DNA from: Escherichia coli
GTDB taxonomy: Bacteria > Pseudomonadota > Gammaproteobacteria > Enterobacterales > Enterobacteriaceae
Assembly (NCBI RefSeq): GCF_003018255.1
Contig: NZ_CP027440.1
Strand: one strand, 5' to 3'
Length of the DNA stretch: 64,000 nt
Positions 49,247 to 59,944 of the stretch are shown here, in pieces. The notes under the pieces are model-generated. The model searched no databases. It was not told the origin of the DNA and worked only from the letters and a program-made list of their open reading frames with translations. A program made the position numbers and the translations under genes. Within the stretch, counting starts at the first letter, position 1. Each line of letters opens with the position of its first letter.

Positions 49247-50284
49247 ATGTTTTCCGCATTGCGCCACCGTACCGCTGCCCTGGCGCTCGGCGTATGCTTT
49301 ATCCTCCCCGTACACGCCTCGTCACCTAAACCTGGCGATTTTGCTAATACCCAGGCACGACATATTGCTACTTTCTTTCCGGGACGCATGACCGGAACTC
49401 CTGCAGAAATGTTATCTGCCGATTATATTCGCCAACAGTTTCAGCAAATGGGTTATCGCAGTGATATTCGGACATTTAATAGTCGGTATATTTATACCGC
49501 CCGCGATAATCGCAAGAGCTGGCATAACGTGACGGGAAGTACGGTGATTGCCGCTCATGAAGGCAAAGCTCCGCAGCAGATCATCATTATGGCGCATCTG
49601 GATACTTACGCTCCGCTGAGCGATGCTGACGCCGATGCCAATCTCGGCGGGCTGACGTTACAAGGAATAGATGATAACGCCGCAGGTTTAGGTGTCATGC
49701 TGGAACTGGCAGAACGCCTGAAAAATACGCCTACCGAGTATGGTATTCGATTTGTGGCGACCAGTGGTGAAGAGGAAGGGAAATTAGGTGCTGAGAATTT
49801 ACTCAAGCGGATGAGTGACACCGAAAAGAAAAATACGCTGCTGGTGATTAATCTCGATAACTTAATTGTTGGCGATAAATTGTATTTCAATAGTGGTGTA
49901 AAAACCCCTGAAGCAGTAAGGAAATTAACGCGCGACAGGGCGCTGGCAATTGCGCGTAGTCATGGAATTGCCGCAACGACCAATCCGGGTTTGAATAAAA
50001 ATTATCCGAAAGGCACTGGGTGTTGTAATGACGCAGAAATATTCGACAAAGCCGGTATTGCTGTACTTTCGGTGGAAGCGACTAACTGGAATCTTGGGAA
50101 TAAGGATGGTTATCAGCAACGCGCAAAAACAGCCGCATTCCCTGCGGGAAATAGCTGGCATGACGTAAGACTGGATAATCAACAACATATTGATAAGGCG
50201 CTTCCTGGAAGAATAGAACGTCGCTGCCGTGATGTTATGCGGATAATGCTACCTCTGGTGAAGGAGTTGGCGAAGGCGTCTTGA
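49247..50284 (+). CDS. iap: Alkaline phosphatase isozyme conversion aminopeptidase (M28 family)
   Basis: ORF track 345 aa; signal peptide, M28 peptidase motifs; located immediately upstream of the CRISPR array as in the classic iap locus. Confidence 0.94.
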   Translation: MFSALRHRTAALALGVCFILPVHASSPKPGDFANTQARHIATFFPGRMTGTPAEMLSADYIRQQFQQMGYRSDIRTFNSRYIYTARDNRKSWHNVTGSTVIAAHEGKAPQQIIIMAHLDTYAPLSDADADANLGGLTLQGIDDNAAGLGVMLELAERLKNTPTEYGIRFVATSGEEEGKLGAENLLKRMSDTEKKNTLLVINLDNLIVGDKLYFNSGVKTPEAVRKLTRDRALAIARSHGIAATTNPGLNKNYPKGTGCCNDAEIFDKAGIAVLSVEATNWNLGNKDGYQQRAKTAAFPAGNSWHDVRLDNQQHIDKALPGRIERRCRDVMRIMLPLVKELAKAS

Positions 50285-50304: not shown

Positions 50305-50333
50305 GGGAGTTCTACCGCAGGGGCGGGGAATTC
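50305..50333 (-). repeat. Decayed relic CRISPR repeat (about 19/29 identity) at the leader-distal end of the array, one spacer-length (32 bp) away from repeat 1
   Basis: GGGAGTTCTACCGCAGGGGCGGGGAATTC aligned by hand to the consensus repeat; correct 61-bp phasing. Confidence 0.6.
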
Positions 50334-50365
50334 TAAGTGATATCCATCATCGCATCCAGTGCGCC

Positions 50366-51188
50366 CGGTTTATCCCCGCTGACGCGGGGAACACACATGA
50401 ATGTCGGTTCAGACCGTGTTTTTACCCGGTTTATCCCCGCTGGCGCGGGGAACACGAGGCTGAACAGGGAGGGGGCTACCGGCACAGCGGTTTATCCCCG
50501 CTGGCGCGGGGAACACTTGCCAACCGCCAAAGACTGGAAAACCAATCTCGGTTTATCCCCGCTGGCGCGGGGAACACTTAAACTTGCCGCCGGTATGGGG
50601 GGAACGGGCCGGTTTATCCCCGCTGGCGCGGGGAACTCGTTTCGCGTCGATCGCCTTTTGCGCAATCGCGCCGGTTTATCCCCGCTGGCGCGGGGAACTC
50701 TTTCTTTTTCCATTTAAGTTATTCTAATACCCCGGTTTATCCCCGCTGGCGCGGGGAACTCGATCATGCCTTACTAAAAGGTCCGCTGACGGGCGGTTTA
50801 TCCCCGCTGGCGCGGGGAACTCATCATGACAAAAAGTTACGCTCATCTATTCAACGGTTTATCCCCGCTGGCGCGGGGAACTCTCCATATGTTGCCCCGC
50901 TCGGGACAACACCCCCGGTTTATCCCCGCTGGCGCGGGGAACTCTTAGCGCCGACAAAAGAAGTTGCGGATAACAGCGGTTTATCCCCGCTGGCGCGGGG
51001 AACTCGCCCGTTCCCAGGGAGTGCGGCTCCACCCCCGCGGTTTATCCCCGCTGACGCGGGGAACTCTTCAGTTTCACACTCGGTAATGCCGTTATTTACG
51101 GTTTATCCCCGCTGGCGCGGGGAACTCCTCGGGGCCAGCCTCCCCCATTAACCCGGCACCGGTTTATCCCCGCTGGCGCGGGGAACTC
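50366..51188 (-). CRISPR. Type I-E CRISPR array, 14 direct repeats of 29 bp (plus-strand form CGGTTTATCCCCGCTGGCGCGGGGAACTC) separated by 13 spacers of 32-33 bp; transcribed on the minus strand from the leader at 51189-51293
   Basis: Repeats located by eye at 50366, 50427, 50488, 50549, 50610, 50672, 50733, 50794, 50855, 50916, 50977, 51038, 51099, 51160 (61-62 bp period); repeat is reverse complement of the I-E repeat GAGTTCCCCGCGCCAGCGGGGATAAACCG; adjacent cas2-cas1. Confidence 0.97.
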
Positions 51189-51293
51189 TCTAAAAGTATA
51201 CATTTGTTCTTAAAGCATTTTTTCCCATAAAAACAACCCACCAACCTTAATGTAACATTTCCTTATTATTAAAGATCAGCTAATTCTTTGTTT
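51189..51293 (-). promoter_or_regulatory. CRISPR leader (AT-rich) between last repeat and cas2 stop
   Basis: About 105 bp AT-rich sequence (..AAAGTATACATTTGTTCTTAAAGCATTTTTTCCCATAAAAACAACC..) directly abutting repeat 14, located at the cas2-proximal end. Confidence 0.85.
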
Positions 51294-52497
<1,204 letters not shown>

Positions 52498-52512: not shown

Positions 52513-53112
52513 TCACAGTGGAGCCAAAGATAGCAAGCCACATCCCATCGATTTAGCTGGCCCAATACCTTGCTGTACAAGATCTATTAACGCTGGCGCG
52601 TCGTTGATGGTGATCACCCCTTCAAAGCAAACCGTTTGGATCTTTCCACTTTTACCATCACCAGAAAAATACTGTGGCCGTTCCGATATGGGATGCACAT
52701 CTTCAACGCGCGCCGCATTGCCCAATTTACGTTGCAACCACGCGATTTGTTCTGCTTCTTTTATTAACGGAACCCGACAGCGTTTAATATTCCCTTTACT
52801 GTCCAGGCGCTTTTGATTGTCGAGAATAGTTTTGATCGGATTTGCCCGAAGCCGAAAATAGAGTGGAACACCAACCTGAAGTTGAAATTCAACCTGTTTA
52901 GTTTTAATGACTGTCGCAACGGCAGTAGAAACAGGCATTTGCGCTGACTGCAATAAAACATGACAGCCTTCTGGTGTGTTTCGCTTCTCAACATGAAAAA
53001 GAAAATCACGAGCAGCATCCGGTCTGTTTGGAAATAAATGCCATAATCCCTGGTGAAGTTGGTAAAGATCCCTGCTCCAGGCCCTGGCAATGATGACTTT
53101 ACTGAGATACAT
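52513..53112 (-). CDS. cas6e: Cas6e (CasE) crRNA endoribonuclease
   Basis: ORF track 199 aa (MYLSKVIIARAWSRDLYQLH...). Confidence 0.95.
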   Translation of the reverse strand: MYLSKVIIARAWSRDLYQLHQGLWHLFPNRPDAARDFLFHVEKRNTPEGCHVLLQSAQMPVSTAVATVIKTKQVEFQLQVGVPLYFRLRANPIKTILDNQKRLDSKGNIKRCRVPLIKEAEQIAWLQRKLGNAARVEDVHPISERPQYFSGDGKSGKIQTVCFEGVITINDAPALIDLVQQGIGPAKSMGCGLLSLAPL

Positions 53113-53773
53113 CCATACCTCCTTTAATCACATACCATTCTCGGGAAGCAAATTGTCGAGGTAAGGTGATCATCGGTTCGTCGCGCACCGTAAATTTTAA
53201 ATGATGCCCGTCAACTGATTCCTCACTATAAATATCGCCGCCAACGGGCTCATAATTTAATAGCGCCTTCTGAGGATCCGACGCCTGACATGTCCCGAGA
53301 AAAAGCGGTTGTGTTAGCGGACAACTCCTCCGCCCCAGATACGGTGTATACCGAGGCTTTAATACTGCTTTTTCAAGTTCTGACATAACCATCGTTGCCT
53401 GTGGTGTTAACCAGATAGCGACGGTAAAGGAGGCATCACATAAATATTCGCGCCATGTTTGAATCGTTTCATGACTTTTCAAACCACGGTAATCTTCTCG
53501 CGCTCCAAGGACTGTATGGTAATCACGCAACCCCGTTACAGACACACGACGATCGTCAAGAATGAGTTCATCGCAGCGCACTGCAAATTGCACACTCTCT
53601 GATAACGCCTGTAATGAAGAAGTATCATCACGTTGGATCCCAAGACAAGCCCCGAGTAGCCCTAATAACCCGCTTCGGGTCGGAAATCTTCCGGTAGGTC
53701 GCGTTCCTTCAAAGGTCGGCTGCCCCCAGGCTTGCATTGGCCCAGCAAGCCGCAAGATCAAATAAGATCTCAT
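53099..53773 (-). CDS. cas5: Cas5e (CasD) Cascade subunit
   Basis: ORF track frame 226 aa; start placed at MRSYLILRLAGPMQAWG (224 aa). Confidence 0.94.
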   Translation of the reverse strand: MRSYLILRLAGPMQAWGQPTFEGTRPTGRFPTRSGLLGLLGACLGIQRDDTSSLQALSESVQFAVRCDELILDDRRVSVTGLRDYHTVLGAREDYRGLKSHETIQTWREYLCDASFTVAIWLTPQATMVMSELEKAVLKPRYTPYLGRRSCPLTQPLFLGTCQASDPQKALLNYEPVGGDIYSEESVDGHHLKFTVRDEPMITLPRQFASREWYVIKGGMDVSQ

Positions 53774-53775
53774 GT

Positions 53776-54867
53776 TCACGCCTCGCCATTATTACGAACC
53801 CAGGATTTTAACTGTTCTAAAGTAGGCATTTGTTTAACTTGAGCAGTAATTGGGTCTACATCAGATAAGCTGAATTGCGCAGCAGCTCCGTTCAGACCAT
53901 ATCCATTGGCAACGCGATCCCAATATTGATTAAACGCCTGTATAGACGGTTGCAAAAAGCCATCTTTCGCTTTAACCGCTTTTTCAAAAGCATTTGCCAT
54001 AGAAAGTGGCATATCGGAGAAATTAACCATTACCATATCCGCAGGGTTAAAAGCGGCATAAGTACGCTGTTTTGCTCCAGGGACCTCTGTTGCCAGCATA
54101 TGAACAACATGGGTTGCAATTTCCAGAGCCTGCTCCCTGGAGGCACCACCTAAATTTTCCTGAAGTTGAGCGAGGTTAATGTTGGCATAACGATAAAAAA
54201 CACCCGATGAAAATTCCTGAGTTCCCAGATGTGCAGAACCTTGTTCCTGTAAATCATCTACAGCGGTGAACCAGTCAATATCAGAATCAACCTGATGAGT
54301 AGTGATCGCATGCGCAATGGACATTGCACCATCAACTTTTCCCAACTCACTCATCATGCCGCTGGTTGCCATTCTTCCACTAAGCGCAATATCAACACCC
54401 TGCTGTAAATTCACACGTATGGCGGCAATATCTTCCTTAAGAACTTTGAGCAGCTTTTTATCATCCAGATTATCAGCCTCTGCTTTTGCAACCTGCTCAC
54501 AGAACCAGGCTATTTCTCCCACAACCCAGGGAGTAACCGCATCGGCAGAAATCTTTTCGGCTTCATCAACTAATTTACCGGAGAGCAGCGCTAATGTCTT
54601 ATCGATGATTTTTTGGTCAAAACGTTCACCAAGTTTTTGCCGAAGAACATCACGTAATTGTGCAAGATGAATTGTTCTGAGACTGGATTCACCAATATTT
54701 TGTGCGTAATAATCACTTTTACGCATCGCATGTTTAAGGCTTTGACTTGAAATTCTTACTCGTCTTTTCCCGCCGAAAATAGCGTCTTTCTGCATGTTCA
54801 TATCGTCGCGGTTCAGACATGAAGGGCTGTGAGAGATCAGAACATGAATATTGATAAAGTTAGACAT
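53776..54867 (-). CDS. cas7: Cas7e (CasC) Cascade backbone subunit
   Basis: ORF track 363 aa ([22 protein letters not shown]...). Confidence 0.95.
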
Positions 54868-54879
54868 AGAAAGGTTTCC

Positions 54880-55362
54880 TTACGCATTTTTGTTTGTGGT
54901 CAATACAAAATCTTCCAGAAGTTGCTGGCGTTCGCGCTTTCCCCACCAGGTCAACATCCTGGCCATTAATGGCCAGTCAAGTACGGGTTCGGCGTGAGTA
55001 AGTAATCGACGTAACTGGACCATATCGGCTGTTCTGTCAGCCCGAATTAATTGAAAGATACGGCGCTCGTTAATTCTTCCACTATTGGCTAAAGCTCTTC
55101 CCAACGAGATACCTGTTGTTTGCTCCGTTTTTTTGTCCTGATGTCGGATGACATTCTTTCCTGCGCTCAGGCAAAACACCATGCGCAAAAGAGCCTGCTG
55201 GTGACGTGGGTTTTCCCAACCAAAAGATTGCACCAGCCTATAAAACGCAGGGATATCGCGTAATTCATCAGGTTCTGAAACACGTCTAATTTGCGCACAT
55301 GCTCCATTATCCAGTTGTTGCCAGGCTCGATATAAAGCCATTGCATCAATTTCATCAGCCAT
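54880..55362 (-). CDS. cse2: Cse2 (CasB) Cascade small subunit
   Basis: ORF track 160 aa. Confidence 0.94.
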   Translation of the reverse strand: MADEIDAMALYRAWQQLDNGACAQIRRVSEPDELRDIPAFYRLVQSFGWENPRHQQALLRMVFCLSAGKNVIRHQDKKTEQTTGISLGRALANSGRINERRIFQLIRADRTADMVQLRRLLTHAEPVLDWPLMARMLTWWGKRERQQLLEDFVLTTNKNA

Positions 55363-56863
55363 TTGATGGCCCTCCTTGAGGTTTTAACTCCCGTAAATGT
55401 TTGTATAGCGTGGCGCGGGCAAGCGCTAATGTGCTTATTAATTTAGGATGATGTGCATAGGGAGCTACAGATTGATTAAATAGCATTTCACACAATTGAT
55501 GAAGTTTGTCTCGTAAATCAGCTATTACCTCATCAGCTTGGGAAAAATTAATATTCGCCAATACATCGGGAATTAATAATTCACTCTGTCGATAGAAATG
55601 CCTTTCTGCAGTCTCATGAACAGAAACTCCGGCCCCTTTGAAGTCTTTATTTTTAAACCCTTCTGCAAAGGTATATAACGCCTTGCGTAAGGCTGTTTTA
55701 TATCCCAAACCAACAGTCACTATTTCGTTTATCACATTGCCGTATTGTTGCCACCCCTGATTAAACATCAACACATCATGACGCCGTTCAAGAATAGATG
55801 CTTGATTATTACGATATCCCCCCATAATCAATTCAAGAGGACTTTGCGGCGCAATATTTCTGAATTGATTCACAACCGCCGCCACGCGATTTCCATTTTC
55901 ATTTTGAATAATCTTATCTACCACAACTCGGCTGATTTGTGTCCATGATGGTGCGGAGGTGGTGAAAGCAAGAAATTTTTCCTCAACCTCCCCTTTCTTG
56001 ACTGTTACCAGACAAGGGGAATGCGGATGGGGCCATAGCCCATTAACTGTAAAGGTAAATTTTTCCTTAAGAAAACCGGTATAACGCAAATTGCTTTCCT
56101 GACCACAGCAAGAACATTTACCAATCCCAATGGGATCGCATAGTTCAATATGCGCTGGTTGCCAGAATAAACCACGGACAAACCCAATTGAAGAAGCAGG
56201 CACCGATTCATTCGGCTTGACAGGCTTAACCCAGGTAGGTTGGTTTTCCGTATGTAATTCATTGGGAAATTGTTTTTGAAGACGAGGTATTGTGAGGACA
56301 TTGAGTAATACCGTCGAGCGAAGATCGATCCCACATACGAAGGTGGTTATAGGTGTTCCTCCACGTAAACCGCTTTTAAAGCCACCACCAAAACCAGGTG
56401 CCTGATTCGCCTGGTTGAATAACGCAATCGCAGTGCATCCACCACATAATGCTTCACCCTGCCCCGGTTGATTGACAAATGCACAATTCGTCGCGCCGCT
56501 TACCCCAGCCAACAGTTTTTCCATTGGAGTCACATCATTTGCTTTGACACCTTTGGTCTGCATAAAGGGATGTTCTGCGTGATTAAGGTAGAACATATCT
56601 ATCCACGGCGCGATGAGTTGTTGAAACTCATCTTCAGTGAGCGGATTCATTATGCGATGTCGAAATTCAACGTCATCTTTTGCCGGGGCGATAATTTGCC
56701 CAATGCAAACCAGCAGTGCTAAAGTGGCCAGTTCCATATCGTCACGGGGCAAACTTAATCGCCACTGATCTCTACTGCAGTATAGCGATTGCAGATTTAT
56801 GATTTGGACTTTCCCCCCGTTTCGCGGGCGTACAGGGATCCAGTTATCAATAAGCAAATTCAT
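55355..56863 (-). CDS. cse1: Cse1 (CasA) Cascade large subunit
   Basis: ORF track 502 aa (MNLLIDNWIPVRPRNGG...). Confidence 0.95.
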   Translation of the reverse strand: MNLLIDNWIPVRPRNGGKVQIINLQSLYCSRDQWRLSLPRDDMELATLALLVCIGQIIAPAKDDVEFRHRIMNPLTEDEFQQLIAPWIDMFYLNHAEHPFMQTKGVKANDVTPMEKLLAGVSGATNCAFVNQPGQGEALCGGCTAIALFNQANQAPGFGGGFKSGLRGGTPITTFVCGIDLRSTVLLNVLTIPRLQKQFPNELHTENQPTWVKPVKPNESVPASSIGFVRGLFWQPAHIELCDPIGIGKCSCCGQESNLRYTGFLKEKFTFTVNGLWPHPHSPCLVTVKKGEVEEKFLAFTTSAPSWTQISRVVVDKIIQNENGNRVAAVVNQFRNIAPQSPLELIMGGYRNNQASILERRHDVLMFNQGWQQYGNVINEIVTVGLGYKTALRKALYTFAEGFKNKDFKGAGVSVHETAERHFYRQSELLIPDVLANINFSQADEVIADLRDKLHQLCEMLFNQSVAPYAHHPKLISTLALARATLYKHLRELKPQGGPSNG

Positions 56864-57277
56864 TTGTTCTCCTTCATATGCTCCGACATTTCTCCTGCAT
56901 TTCTATGCGTCGGCACACTTCCGTTATCGGTAAAAACAAAGAAAAAATACGGCGTAATTAATTCAATAATCACATTCACTGCAAAAATATATTCATTGGT
57001 TTAATACAATTAACCTATACATATATTAAGATGTGTTGAATTGTTTAAAGACAATAATGCATGCATTTCAAATCTGCAAGTTATTCGTTTTATTATCAAA
57101 GAAATTTTTAGTTATAATAATTACCATAAATTTTATTACATAAAATATTCATACTGTGAATATAAAATCTCATACCGGGAAATTAAAAGAAGATGTACAT
57201 TGTGCACTTTCCCTACTTAAGTAGGGATAAACCGTTATTGGTCTTGTTATCGTCATTGATACCAATCATTCCCGAAG
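56864..57277 (-). promoter_or_regulatory. AT-rich cas3-cse1 intergenic region expected to carry the Cascade operon promoter (Pcas) and H-NS/LeuO control sites
   Basis: 414 bp strongly AT-rich non-coding stretch directly upstream of cse1; regulatory assignment is from established E. coli knowledge, exact promoter positions not determined here. Confidence 0.6.
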
Positions 57278-59944
57278 TTATTTGGGATTTGCAGGGATGA
57301 CTCTGGTCATCCCTTCATCCCGAGTGTAGGTAATAACAATATTATTACCCTGCCAGATCCATCCATCCTGATTCTGTTTCCCTTCCAGCCAAAGTAACCC
57401 ATCTTCATCTACTACTTCAGAAAAATTACGTTTCCAGGTGAAGGGTACATTGACGCGATTAAGTGCTAACGCCTCATACTGCTGTTCATGACTTAGGTCC
57501 TCGTAGACCTGGCCATCGAGCAGTTGTTTACCTGAAGACGTTTGTAAATAAGGCAATAATGGCAGGCTCATTTCCCCATCCCTCGTTACCGCAAGAATTG
57601 TTTCATCGTTATCCTGCAAGCTATATTCTTCAGCCCACTGCAGAACCTTGCGAGCCTTGAACCTCTTTTCACACTCAGCGCTTTCAAACTTATCCATGCC
57701 TTTGATGACCCATTCTGGCTCATCCATTTCAGCATCATCGTAAATGCTATCCAGCCATTGCCGGTAGGCATCGGGGAAAAATAAGGATGCTCCATTAAGT
57801 TCCTCAATATGTTGCTGCGTCCGCCACATGACTCTAACGTTGCTATAAATATGCTCATGTCGTCCGTAACCTTCGCCATCAGGCAGCAAAACGGTGGCAA
57901 GAGGAACCTCAAAACCAGCGGGACGATATTTGCGATGATGGCGATGTAAACGGCCCAATCGTTGGAAAAGTAAATCTGCGGGGCAATGCTGAGTAATTAA
58001 CCAATCAAAATCAACGTCGAGTGATTGTTCCACGACCTGGGTGGCGACAAGTATCCGTCCAACATTTCGCTTCCCATTTTTGCCGAAATTGCTAATAACT
58101 CGATTCTCTTTTTCACGACGATCGTTCAGCGTAAAGCGCGCATGAAACAAATCTATATCTACTTGCGTGTTATTTAGTTCCTTTAACCGTTGGTGGCATA
58201 GCTGTGCAACATCAACCAAATTGCAGATAAGACAGACTTGTGCACCCGCATTTGCCGCTACGATCATTCGCTCTAACATCCTAAGGTCAGGTAACATGTC
58301 AGCTAAATAAATAGGTTCTGGCCGAATCGAAAAGCGGGGCGGGAGTTGTTCTGAATGAGCTAACAGATCAAAACGTTGTGCACCATTCACACCTCGCCAG
58401 TTAATGAGTGGATATGCGGAGTTATTTTCCTCTGGATCTGTATGCAGACCATAAGTATCCAGAAGTTTCTGTTTTTGTTTCATTGGTAGAGTTGCGGAAA
58501 GAAGAATAACACTCCCCCCCACATCAGCCTGAGCCTTGAGCACAGCCTCCAGCAAGCCGTTCATATACGTGTCGTAAGCATGAACTTCATCAACAATTAA
58601 AACACTTCGACCAATTCCCAAACCACGGATAAAGCGGTGTTTAACTGGCAATACCGATATCAACACCTGATCAATCGTGCAAACGCCGATTTGCCCAAGA
58701 AACACTTTCTTATTGCTTTGTGACAACCACTGACAACACTGAACCCATGCTTCTTCTTGCCCCTGCTCAGTAAATGCGCGTGATTTTATTGATTGAAAAA
58801 GGTGGTTAAAACGTGAATTACCATGAGCAAGAATAAGATTTGGGGAGGTAAATAAACGGCTCGCGTTCGCTTCCATTCTGCTGAGCATTGCATTTGCAGT
58901 AGCTTGTGTAGGGAGGGCAAAAATAACACTATCCGCAAGTTGTTGGTCAATAAGTTTCCAGGCATAGGCCAGCGCAGTTTCAGTTTTACCTGAACCCGTA
59001 GGTGCCTCTATTACCGTCAGCCCGGGCGCTACTGGAAGAGCATCAACTAACACTTGTAATTGTCTGGGTTGATAGCCATTGTCCAGTAGAGCATGAACAC
59101 CTTCATAACATCGCTTATTTGATACAAGGCCGCTCAACTCCAATACCCGGCTCGCATCCTGCTGTCGGTCCTGGAAATACGTTCTTAGAGCATTTATGTT
59201 GGAAGGTGCATCCTCTTTAAACAGAAAGGTATTCGTTGTAGTCCAGGAGCCTAACCAGTCAGCAAGCGAGCAAAAACCTGCTAACAGTGATGAACAATCA
59301 GGTGGTATATCGTTTATAGATAACCCGGCTGGCGTTAAAAATAATGCTTCGAGTACAGATATCCACTCCTCACGAGCCTGTTTATCTTGCGCAGCATAAG
59401 ATGCCAGAGAAGCTGGCATTTCCCAACGCGACTTATCTTGATCCTGGGAATGTAATATAAAACCATGATGTCCTGTAACAGCCTCTACCCATGGAAACCA
59501 GGACTCATAAGGATGAGGAGCGGCATCAAAAAAACTGAAAAAATCCCCGGGAGATTGCTCTGAAAGTGAATCCTGGTTAAACCAATACAGACCGGCTGCA
59601 CCATGATTAAATTTACGGCACATTTGTGTTGATGGACCATTAAGTGATGGCGTTGCAGGATTTAATTTCAGCCAACTTTCTGCTGATTTATATTGGAATC
59701 GTATATCAAACTTTCCGATATCATGAAGGGCAATGAAAAATAACAGCCAGGCTTTCACCTTCTGTTTTGATAGCATTTCATTTCGGCAAAAAGCATTTTG
59801 TAGTACGACTGATTGATCCCACCAGCAATCTGCAACAGCTGCAACATCCAGGCAATGATAAATCAACAGATGAATATCATTTCCTTTCGTCAGGCTTTTT
59901 GAGGATTTCCCCCAGTAATGACATATATATTTAAAAGGTTCCAT
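57278..59944 (-). CDS. cas3: Cas3 HD-nuclease/helicase (type I-E)
   Basis: ORF track 888 aa; HD motif (ALHDIGKFD), Walker A EAPTGSGKTE, DEVH box (LIVDEVHAYD); SD GGGAGG 7 nt upstream of ATG. Confidence 0.96.
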   Translation of the reverse strand: MEPFKYICHYWGKSSKSLTKGNDIHLLIYHCLDVAAVADCWWDQSVVLQNAFCRNEMLSKQKVKAWLLFFIALHDIGKFDIRFQYKSAESWLKLNPATPSLNGPSTQMCRKFNHGAAGLYWFNQDSLSEQSPGDFFSFFDAAPHPYESWFPWVEAVTGHHGFILHSQDQDKSRWEMPASLASYAAQDKQAREEWISVLEALFLTPAGLSINDIPPDCSSLLAGFCSLADWLGSWTTTNTFLFKEDAPSNINALRTYFQDRQQDASRVLELSGLVSNKRCYEGVHALLDNGYQPRQLQVLVDALPVAPGLTVIEAPTGSGKTETALAYAWKLIDQQLADSVIFALPTQATANAMLSRMEANASRLFTSPNLILAHGNSRFNHLFQSIKSRAFTEQGQEEAWVQCCQWLSQSNKKVFLGQIGVCTIDQVLISVLPVKHRFIRGLGIGRSVLIVDEVHAYDTYMNGLLEAVLKAQADVGGSVILLSATLPMKQKQKLLDTYGLHTDPEENNSAYPLINWRGVNGAQRFDLLAHSEQLPPRFSIRPEPIYLADMLPDLRMLERMIVAANAGAQVCLICNLVDVAQLCHQRLKELNNTQVDIDLFHARFTLNDRREKENRVISNFGKNGKRNVGRILVATQVVEQSLDVDFDWLITQHCPADLLFQRLGRLHRHHRKYRPAGFEVPLATVLLPDGEGYGRHEHIYSNVRVMWRTQQHIEELNGASLFFPDAYRQWLDSIYDDAEMDEPEWVIKGMDKFESAECEKRFKARKVLQWAEEYSLQDNDETILAVTRDGEMSLPLLPYLQTSSGKQLLDGQVYEDLSHEQQYEALALNRVNVPFTWKRNFSEVVDEDGLLWLEGKQNQDGWIWQGNNIVITYTRDEGMTRVIPANPK

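Follow-up and report, generated by a model that had tools for sequence, protein, structure and literature searches.

A CRISPR array with its leader and a complete type I-E cas operon lies between iap and cas2 in the 64,000-nucleotide stretch of Escherichia coli DNA that was analysed (the window). All eight cas genes adjoining the array scored above the NCBIfam cut-offs, and a CRISPR feature is annotated at the equivalent place in RefSeq relatives. The iap gene forms the conserved flank on the side of the oldest units. Over cysC-iap, this flank has 99.9% identity to E. coli DETEC-S792, and it was found at an identity of at least 90% in 5,425 of 5,426 complete E. coli genomes. The iap-adjacent repeat array of E. 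coli was reportedly first described by Ishino and colleagues in 1987.

A mismatch scan of the whole window and a repeat search agreed in phase and gave 14 phased 29-nt direct repeats at 50366-51188. The first-pass annotation had counted 14 well-phased 29-bp repeats, and its count, its phase and its subtype boundaries were all reproduced by the automated repeat search. The copies, which lie on the minus strand, are CGGTTTATCCCCGCTGGCGCGGGGAAC[A/T]C and have 0-2 mismatches to the E. coli type I-E consensus GAGTTCCCCGCGCCAGCGGGGATAAACCG. On the plus strand the repeats appear as the canonical E. coli type I-E repeat in reverse complement, and the array is therefore read on the minus strand. The 13 spacers all differ from each other. 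They are 32 nt long apart from one of 33 nt at 50639-50671, which accounts for the single 62-nt step in a period of 61 nt. The features of the locus are collected in Table 1.

Table 1. Features of the iap-cas2 CRISPR locus, with positions in the window
Feature	Position	Strand	Remarks
iap (alkaline phosphatase isozyme conversion aminopeptidase)	49247-50284	+	345-aa ORF; NCBIfam NF007568, 704 bits
Relic 'anchor' terminal repeat	50305-50333	-	plus strand GGGAGTTCTACCGCAGGGGCGGGGAATTC; crRNA sense GAATTCCCCGCCCCTGCGGTAGAACTCCC
Ghost spacer	50334-50365	-	32-nt fossil spacer
Repeat 1	50366-50394	-	ACAC subtype; G-to-A in loop; oldest intact repeat
Spacer 1	50395-50426	-	putative target in the P1/P7 phage-plasmid family
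Repeats 2-4 (ACAC) and spacers 2, 3	50427-50577	-	putative ancestral part of the array
Spacer 4	50578-50609	-	last before the subtype change; ACAC iap-side, ACTC leader-side
Repeats 5-14 (ACTC, 'L2-specific') and spacers 5-13	50610-51188	-	
Spacer 5	50639-50671	-	sole 33-nt spacer
Repeat 12	51038-51066	-	ACTC subtype; G-to-A in loop
Spacer 12	51067-51098	-	putative target in a prophage tail-tip J-like gene
Repeats 1-7, starts	50366, 50427, 50488, 50549, 50610, 50672, 50733	-	
Repeats 8-14, starts	50794, 50855, 50916, 50977, 51038, 51099, 51160	-	
CRISPR leader, L2 (K-12) type	51189-51293	-	A+T-rich, 105 nt; 105/105 identical to the K-12 MG1655 leader
cas2e	51294-51578	-	TIGR01873, 139 bits
cas1e	51580-52497	-	TIGR03638, 375 bits
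Cascade genes, whole block	52513-56863	-	each above NCBIfam cut-off
cas6e	52513-53112	-	
cas5e	53099-53779	-	
cas7e	53776-54867	-	
cse2	54880-55362	-	
cse1	55355-56863	-	
cas3	57278-59944	-	NF007248, 1606 bits

The palindromic repeat is predicted to form a stem-loop of the kind that is bound and cut by Cas6e, with a 7-bp stem and a 4-nt loop at -15.1 kcal/mol (z ~ -3.6). Tandem Repeats Finder returned zero rows for the array. This does not count against the array, because the unique spacers hold the identity between the units low. At the E-value threshold, Rfam 15 gave no CRISPR repeat family, just two weak Chlorobi-1 hits on the repeats. These hits are probably due to chance, and the missing Rfam match probably reflects the content of the library and says little on the array.

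Repeats 1 (50366) and 12 (51038) read GCTGACGCG, which confirms the G-to-A change that had been noticed in both. In the crRNA sense, the change falls within the loop of the hairpin, where the tetraloop GCCA becomes GUCA. With the predicted fold energy unchanged at -15.1 kcal/mol, it is structurally neutral in the modelled fold. Since A or T is found at the variant site of repeat 1 in seven of the eight sampled strains, the change in this repeat appears to be old, that is ancestral. The change in repeat 12 is missing in the matching repeat of strain JNE112863, and strain JNE23-011 has no repeat carrying it. Its absence from these two nearest relatives suggests that it is recent or was recombined from GAC-type repeats, which dominate arrays such as that of AR_0369.

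No sigma-70 promoter was found in the leader by a simple consensus scan. The sole terminator call of the scan was a repeat hairpin that happens to precede a T-rich spacer. As the consensus promoter scan was negative, transcription was inferred from the identity of the leader to that of K-12, where the leader promoter has been mapped experimentally. By analogy with K-12, the leader would drive transcription of the array on the minus strand, and Cas6e would cut at the base of each repeat hairpin to give crRNAs that guide Cascade and Cas3. Cas1-Cas2 would insert new spacers at the leader and duplicate the leader-adjacent repeat, and H-NS would silence the system.

The Cas2 protein of the window is 94% identical to K-12 Cas2 and 87% identical to the Cas2 of an E1 strain. 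It has the E2 length of 94 aa versus 97 aa in E1. Cas2 differs just moderately between the variants (94% versus 87%), so the E2 assignment rests mainly on the leader, which is that of K-12, the reference strain for E2. We conclude that the locus is E. coli CRISPR2.1 (CRISPR-I), the array of a type I-E system that very probably belongs to the K-12-like cas-E2/L2 variant.

The K-12 CRISPR-I array occupies the same iap-cas2 locus and shares the 105-nt leader, the repeat consensus, the ACTC ending at the leader side and the layout of the cas operon. The relic repeat and the ghost spacer of K-12 are also those of the window, apart from one indel and a few substitutions. However, K-12 has 13 good repeats with a change from ACAC to ACTC after one spacer, whereas the window has 14 with the change after four, and all the true spacers differ. 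The possibility that the window is K-12 itself was rejected on account of these different spacers and because an identical array was found in no complete genome.

One spacer length upstream of repeat 1, the first-pass annotation had noted a relic repeat with about 19 of 29 identical positions. This holds: the sequence at 50305-50333 is identical to the ACTC consensus in 19 of 29 positions and to the ACAC form in 18 of 29. The gap to repeat 1 is exactly 32 nt, which places the relic in phase with the array. The matches are unevenly spread, with 16 of 19 in the spacer-adjacent part and 3 of 10 in the far part. Elsewhere in the window, an identity of at least 19/29 occurred at 3.2e-5 per position on both strands, and in the shuffled 80-nt flank an in-phase match of this quality had a frequency of 2.5e-5 (200,000 shuffles), so the relic aligns better than shuffled sequence. 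It was conserved in all eight sampled strains. In Escherichia sp. MOD1-EC7003, most of the relic is deleted and iap and the ghost spacer are retained. No additional relic was found 61 or 122 nt upstream. A second relic inside iap was considered and dropped, as the identities there (10/29 or less) were at the background level. We conclude that the relic is a genuine decayed repeat.

The relic and the adjoining ghost spacer form a tandem that is not specific to this strain. The 80-nt block that runs from the stop codon of iap through the ghost spacer was present at an identity of at least 90% and in single copy in 3,762 of 5,426 complete E. coli genomes. No annotated feature lay under the block in any of the 40 matches listed. 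In RefSeq, the PGAP CRISPR features begin at the first good repeat, which bears out the earlier remark that the relic and its spacer usually go unannotated. The standard annotation pipelines leave out this terminal pair. In an alignment of four L2/E2 and four L1/E1 strains, the tandem had a mean column identity of 97%; the ghost spacer varied at 1 of its 32 positions and the relic in about 5 columns.

This pair has been described before. Almendros 2014 (PMC3903273), citing Diez-Villasenor et al. 2010, reports a tandem of a 'degenerated repeat and particular spacer' that is common to E. coli whatever the cas-E variant. The tandem of the window differs in nothing material from the one in these two papers. 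The relic and the ghost spacer are therefore real, unannotated and species-wide rather than strain-specific, yet already published. What can be added is the count over 5,426 genomes and a candidate source of the spacer.

In a scan of one genome per species, the core of the ghost spacer turned up away from any CRISPR array at L013:9165-9196 of a draft E. coli genome. The match covers 30 of 32 positions, both mismatches are PAM-distal, and the flank reads ATT. It lies inside a DUF2857 gene, next to an integrating-conjugative-element gene of the PFL_4669 family and a traR-like gene. By this match to a mobile-element gene, the ghost spacer is a genuine old spacer, which also backs the reading of the relic as a one-time repeat. 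The DUF2857 gene carrying the match had no megablast hit in the 5,426 complete E. coli genomes, which suggests that the source element is rare or absent in that set. When the ghost spacer and spacers 2-11 were searched in the phage and plasmid collections, they gave nothing beyond hits at chance level and a single chromosome that had been filed as a plasmid. The DUF2857 gene of an integrative-conjugative element is thus a candidate source of the fossil spacer. If true, this origin would date an ancient meeting of the E. coli lineage with that element family.

The persistence of the tandem raises the question of selection. The relic and the ghost spacer could be kept as an anchor that, being unable to recombine with the true repeats, guards the array against being lost altogether, or because they give rise to a crRNA-like regulator. 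The tandem occurs in 3,762 genomes irrespective of the cas variant, the ghost spacer persists in a cryptic Escherichia clade, and it varies at 1 of 32 positions against about 5 columns of the relic, although eight strains are too small a sample to test this. Almendros 2014 (PMC3903273) also proposes the degenerated repeat as an 'anchor'. However, at 90-99% the tandem is conserved no better than the iap region next to it, and plain hitch-hiking beside iap accounts for the persistence. In addition, no target of the ghost spacer was found in the window. The relic is predicted to fold into a weak 4-bp hairpin at -6.4 kcal/mol, compared with -15.1 for the true repeats, with its two basal pairs lost. 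As just this 4-bp stem is retained, it is doubtful that the ghost spacer could yield a correctly processed crRNA or that Cas6e would process the modelled relic hairpin. We therefore consider selection on the tandem unlikely. The wider proposal that it is selectively kept across E. coli and the sister Escherichia clades, as a recombination-proof anchor keeping a landing site for incoming cas modules or as the source of a crRNA-like RNA, appears quite unlikely as well.

Inside the array, repeats 1-4 end in ACAC and repeats 5-14 end in ACTC. The two endings had been noted in the first-pass annotation and were confirmed by the mismatch scan. There they had been taken as part of an age gradient; the split itself is real, but it is not a mark of ageing, as the subtype tracks the leader and the cas-E variant. 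The ACAC ending was found in 42 of the 43 repeats of four E1/L1 strains, which have the other leader and the 97-aa Cas2, and ACTC stands at the leader end in all seven L2/E2 arrays examined. The exact junction of an ACTC repeat with the L2 leader, searched with a 74-nt query (12 nt of the repeat and 62 nt of the leader), occurred in 1,191 of 1,221 genomes with an L2 leader. For the ACAC repeat and the L1 leader, the exact junction occurred in 1,773 of 1,833 genomes with an L1 leader. At the scale of the species, the subtype follows the leader type in about 97% of each class over roughly 3,000 genomes.

The L1 and L2 leaders, the 'L2-specific CRISPRs' and the integration of an E2 module at the array have been described (Almendros 2014, PMC3903273). 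According to that paper, the cas-E2 genes moved in as a module together with the L2 leader and one or more 'L2-specific' repeat units, and the iap-proximal part of the older array is kept. From the association of subtype and leader across genomes and from this published module exchange, we read the switch between repeats 4 and 5 as a seam. It fits the joining of two histories and not a gradual decay. In AR_0369 and LD93-1, an ACTC repeat is sandwiched between ACAC repeats, a pattern which requires more than one insertion plus deletions in the history of those arrays.

The sharing of spacers with other genomes was determined for the two parts of the array. About 1,000 complete genomes have at least one of spacers 1-3 in their chromosomal CRISPR arrays. 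Any of spacers 4-13 was found in just 11 of 5,426, and spacer 5 was in no other complete E. coli genome. With the ghost spacer in 3,762 genomes, sharing falls from the iap end through spacers 1-3 to spacers 4-13, so that the age gradient proposed for the spacers, old at the iap end, stands. The related proposal that the newest spacers are at the leader end held in part: the polarity is supported by the sharing, but recent acquisition is not, as the leader-end spacers are shared with relatives.

No identical array was found among the complete E. coli genomes. The nearest relatives in this set are JNE112863, JNE23-011 and DETEC-S792, with flanks that are 99.8-99.9% identical, and all three have the relic, the ghost spacer and repeat 1 in common with the window. 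JNE112863 shares spacers 1, 3, 4 and 6-13, including the three leader-end ones, but spacers 2 and 5 are missing from it and six additional internal spacers are present. JNE23-011 has a shorter version of the same array, sharing spacers 1, 3, 4, 8-10, 12 and 13; here, the last two leader-end spacers are kept and spacer 11 is missing. DETEC-S792 shares spacers 1-3 and has a different leader-proximal half. JNE112863 carries both fourth spacers, that of DETEC-S792 and that of the window, with an ACAC repeat in between, which is the arrangement predicted if the window and the DETEC-S792 arrays arose by deletion from such an ancestor. In JNE112863, as in the window, spacer 4 stands between an ACAC repeat toward iap and an ACTC repeat toward the leader. 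As judged by sequence comparison, the array departs from its nearest relatives in internal spacers, apparently mostly by loss, with no sign of recent acquisition. The E. coli CRISPR system is viewed as largely dormant in nature, and relatives that differ by internal loss and not by acquisition agree with this view.

Taken together, the array is very probably a historical mosaic of a K-12-like cas-E2/L2 type I-E CRISPR2.1 locus. The decayed terminal repeat and the fossil spacer at the iap end, which are fixed in the species, would predate the split of the cas-E variants. The four ACAC repeats with the widely shared spacers would have been inherited from an older array with cas-E1 and an L1 leader. 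From repeat 5 on, the ACTC ending would have entered with an L2 leader/cas-E2 module that recombined into the array, and would have been copied at each acquisition. Later change may have been mostly internal spacer loss through recombination between repeats. A deletion across the seam would leave an ACTC-ended repeat and so shift the seam toward iap; such deletions would explain why its position varies from strain to strain, for example in K-12, where the seam lies closer to iap, with a single spacer before it.

The same switch could in principle be due to one point mutation from ACAC to ACTC, arising in situ in the repeat beside the leader and passed on with every further acquisition, giving a simple age gradient in a single lineage. 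In type I-E systems, the leader-adjacent repeat is duplicated at each acquisition, so that a mutation there would spread, and the array of the window does show one clean transition. However, the subtype tracks the leader variant over about 3,000 genomes and the E1 strains are ACAC nearly throughout (42 of 43 repeats), the spacers at the junction differ between the window and DETEC-S792, and the literature credits module exchange (Almendros 2014, PMC3903273). A mutation in place is therefore very unlikely. At some point, the ACTC mutation must still have occurred once, and the donor lineage is its probable place of origin.

As to the iap end of the mosaic, the idea that the relic was never a repeat, and is either a chance resemblance or a hairpin of iap acting as a 3' stabiliser or terminator, draws on its position 21 nt past the iap stop codon, on the strong extended hairpin predicted for the K-12 version (-14.1 kcal/mol) and on four other chance sites with at least 19/29 in the window, but it is extremely unlikely given the exact phase with its shuffle frequency of 2.5e-5, the clustering of the matches in the spacer-side half, the true spacer (30/32 to a mobile element) between the relic and repeat 1, the lack of a T-run or a terminator call after the relic, and MOD1-EC7003, where iap and the spacer remain without most of the relic.

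The first-pass interpretation of the locus is thus supported in part: it was right in outline, but the repeat subtypes were misread as ageing. The decayed end repeat, the conserved last spacer and the two repeat subtypes were all already described in the literature of 2010-2014. The locus is a textbook E. coli CRISPR array and matters little beyond bookkeeping. The modest gains are the subtype-leader counts, the internal spacer loss seen in the relatives and the candidate integrative-conjugative-element source of the fossil spacer.

The intact spacers were compared with the phage and plasmid collections and with the rest of the window. No target was found elsewhere in the 64-kb window at 9 mismatches or fewer, so there is no self-targeting inside the 64 kb. 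Spacers 2-11 gave no match in the phage and plasmid collections beyond the exceptions named with the ghost spacer, and among the intact spacers none but 1 and 12 had a convincing match. Matches of spacer 13 to siphophage tape-measure genes (28/32 or 27/30, E ~0.5) were not relied on. Spacer 1 matched gene upf94.2 of phage P7 in 32 of 32 positions, and many P1-like phage-plasmids match too. The flank in P7 is CAG, which is CTG in the crRNA sense and not the canonical AAG. Spacer 12 matched a prophage tail-tip J-like gene in 30 of 32 positions, with a perfect seed and both mismatches PAM-distal, and the match is followed by CTT, that is an AAG PAM in the crRNA sense. By these matches, a mobile-element origin was shown for some of the spacers, with P7/P1, the prophage J gene and the integrative-element DUF2857 gene as the apparent sources. 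The flanks of the matched protospacers differ, with AAG for spacer 12, CTG for spacer 1 and ATT for the ghost spacer.

Beside cas3 lies a repeat-like mini-array. Its first unit, ACTTTCCCTACTTAAGTAGGGATAAACCG, is identical to the CRISPR repeat at 19 of 29 positions and keeps the geometry of a true repeat, a 7-bp stem and a 4-nt loop, through two compensatory pair changes. This unit carries the exact ATAAACCG handle, and its fold was calculated at -10.3 kcal/mol (z -3.6). Next come a spacer roughly 31 nt long and then a weaker second unit (14/29). When the spacer was compared with its predicted target upstream of cse1, pairing was found at positions 1-5, 7-8, 10-11 and 13-17. The arrangement agrees with the regulatory mini-array that Shmakov et al. 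(2023) described for type I-E in E. coli, and judged from its sequence the cas3-side element fits a mini-array of this kind.

Mini-array beside cas3 and the predicted target of its spacer
Feature	Window coordinates	Strand	Location	PAM
Repeat-like mini-array	57206-57294	+	antisense to cas3, directly past its stop codon	
Predicted target of the mini-array spacer	57078-57112		upstream of cse1	AAG

For the species-wide ghost spacer, the 32-nt fossil spacer next to the relic repeat, a 30/32 match was found in E. coli SCPM-O-B-8794 (NZ_JAATUR010000001.1, L013:9165-9196). The match lies within a DUF2857 gene that adjoins a gene of the PFL_4669 integrating-conjugative-element family and a traR-like gene, and it is flanked by AAT, not CTT. 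This DUF2857 gene had no megablast match among 5,426 complete E. coli genomes.

The relic repeat itself, the decayed anchor unit of the array, varies between genomes. In K-12 (L002:1640-1670), it has a 1-nt insertion and ends in GGGGGAACTC. The K-12 relic folds into a long hairpin closed by GAGUUC/GAACUC that is far stronger (-14.1 kcal/mol, z -5.2) than that of the window version (-6.4 kcal/mol). In the non-coli Escherichia sp. MOD1-EC7003 (L015:1-420), a deletion has removed most of the relic repeat, but the ghost spacer is retained. The array of this strain stops abruptly within a repeat, at the junction of …CGCTGGCGCG and CTGAGGAATCCCC…, which suggests that the leader and cas side were removed by a deletion or an insertion.

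A 4.5-kb contig labelled as a Bacillota bacterium MAG (JAEWTL010000035.1) contains a typical E. coli iap end, the relic, the ghost spacer and a CRISPR2.1 array. It is almost certainly E. coli sequence that was mis-binned or is contaminating.

In AR_0369 (L005:1360-1390) and LD93-1 (L006:1360-1390), ACAC repeats flank an ACTC repeat that carries the G-to-A change in its loop and precedes the ancestral spacers 2 and 3. The repeat subtypes are therefore non-monotonic in some strains, and this order points to recombination or insertion inside the arrays.

By a known rule, the PAM of the newest protospacer supplies the last base of the repeat. In DETEC-S792, the leader-adjacent repeat (L001:2044-2072) starts with TGG on the plus strand, whereas the other repeats start with CGG; its last base in the crRNA sense is therefore A instead of G. 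This is in line with the PAM-copy rule, with the newest spacer here coming from a non-AAG site.
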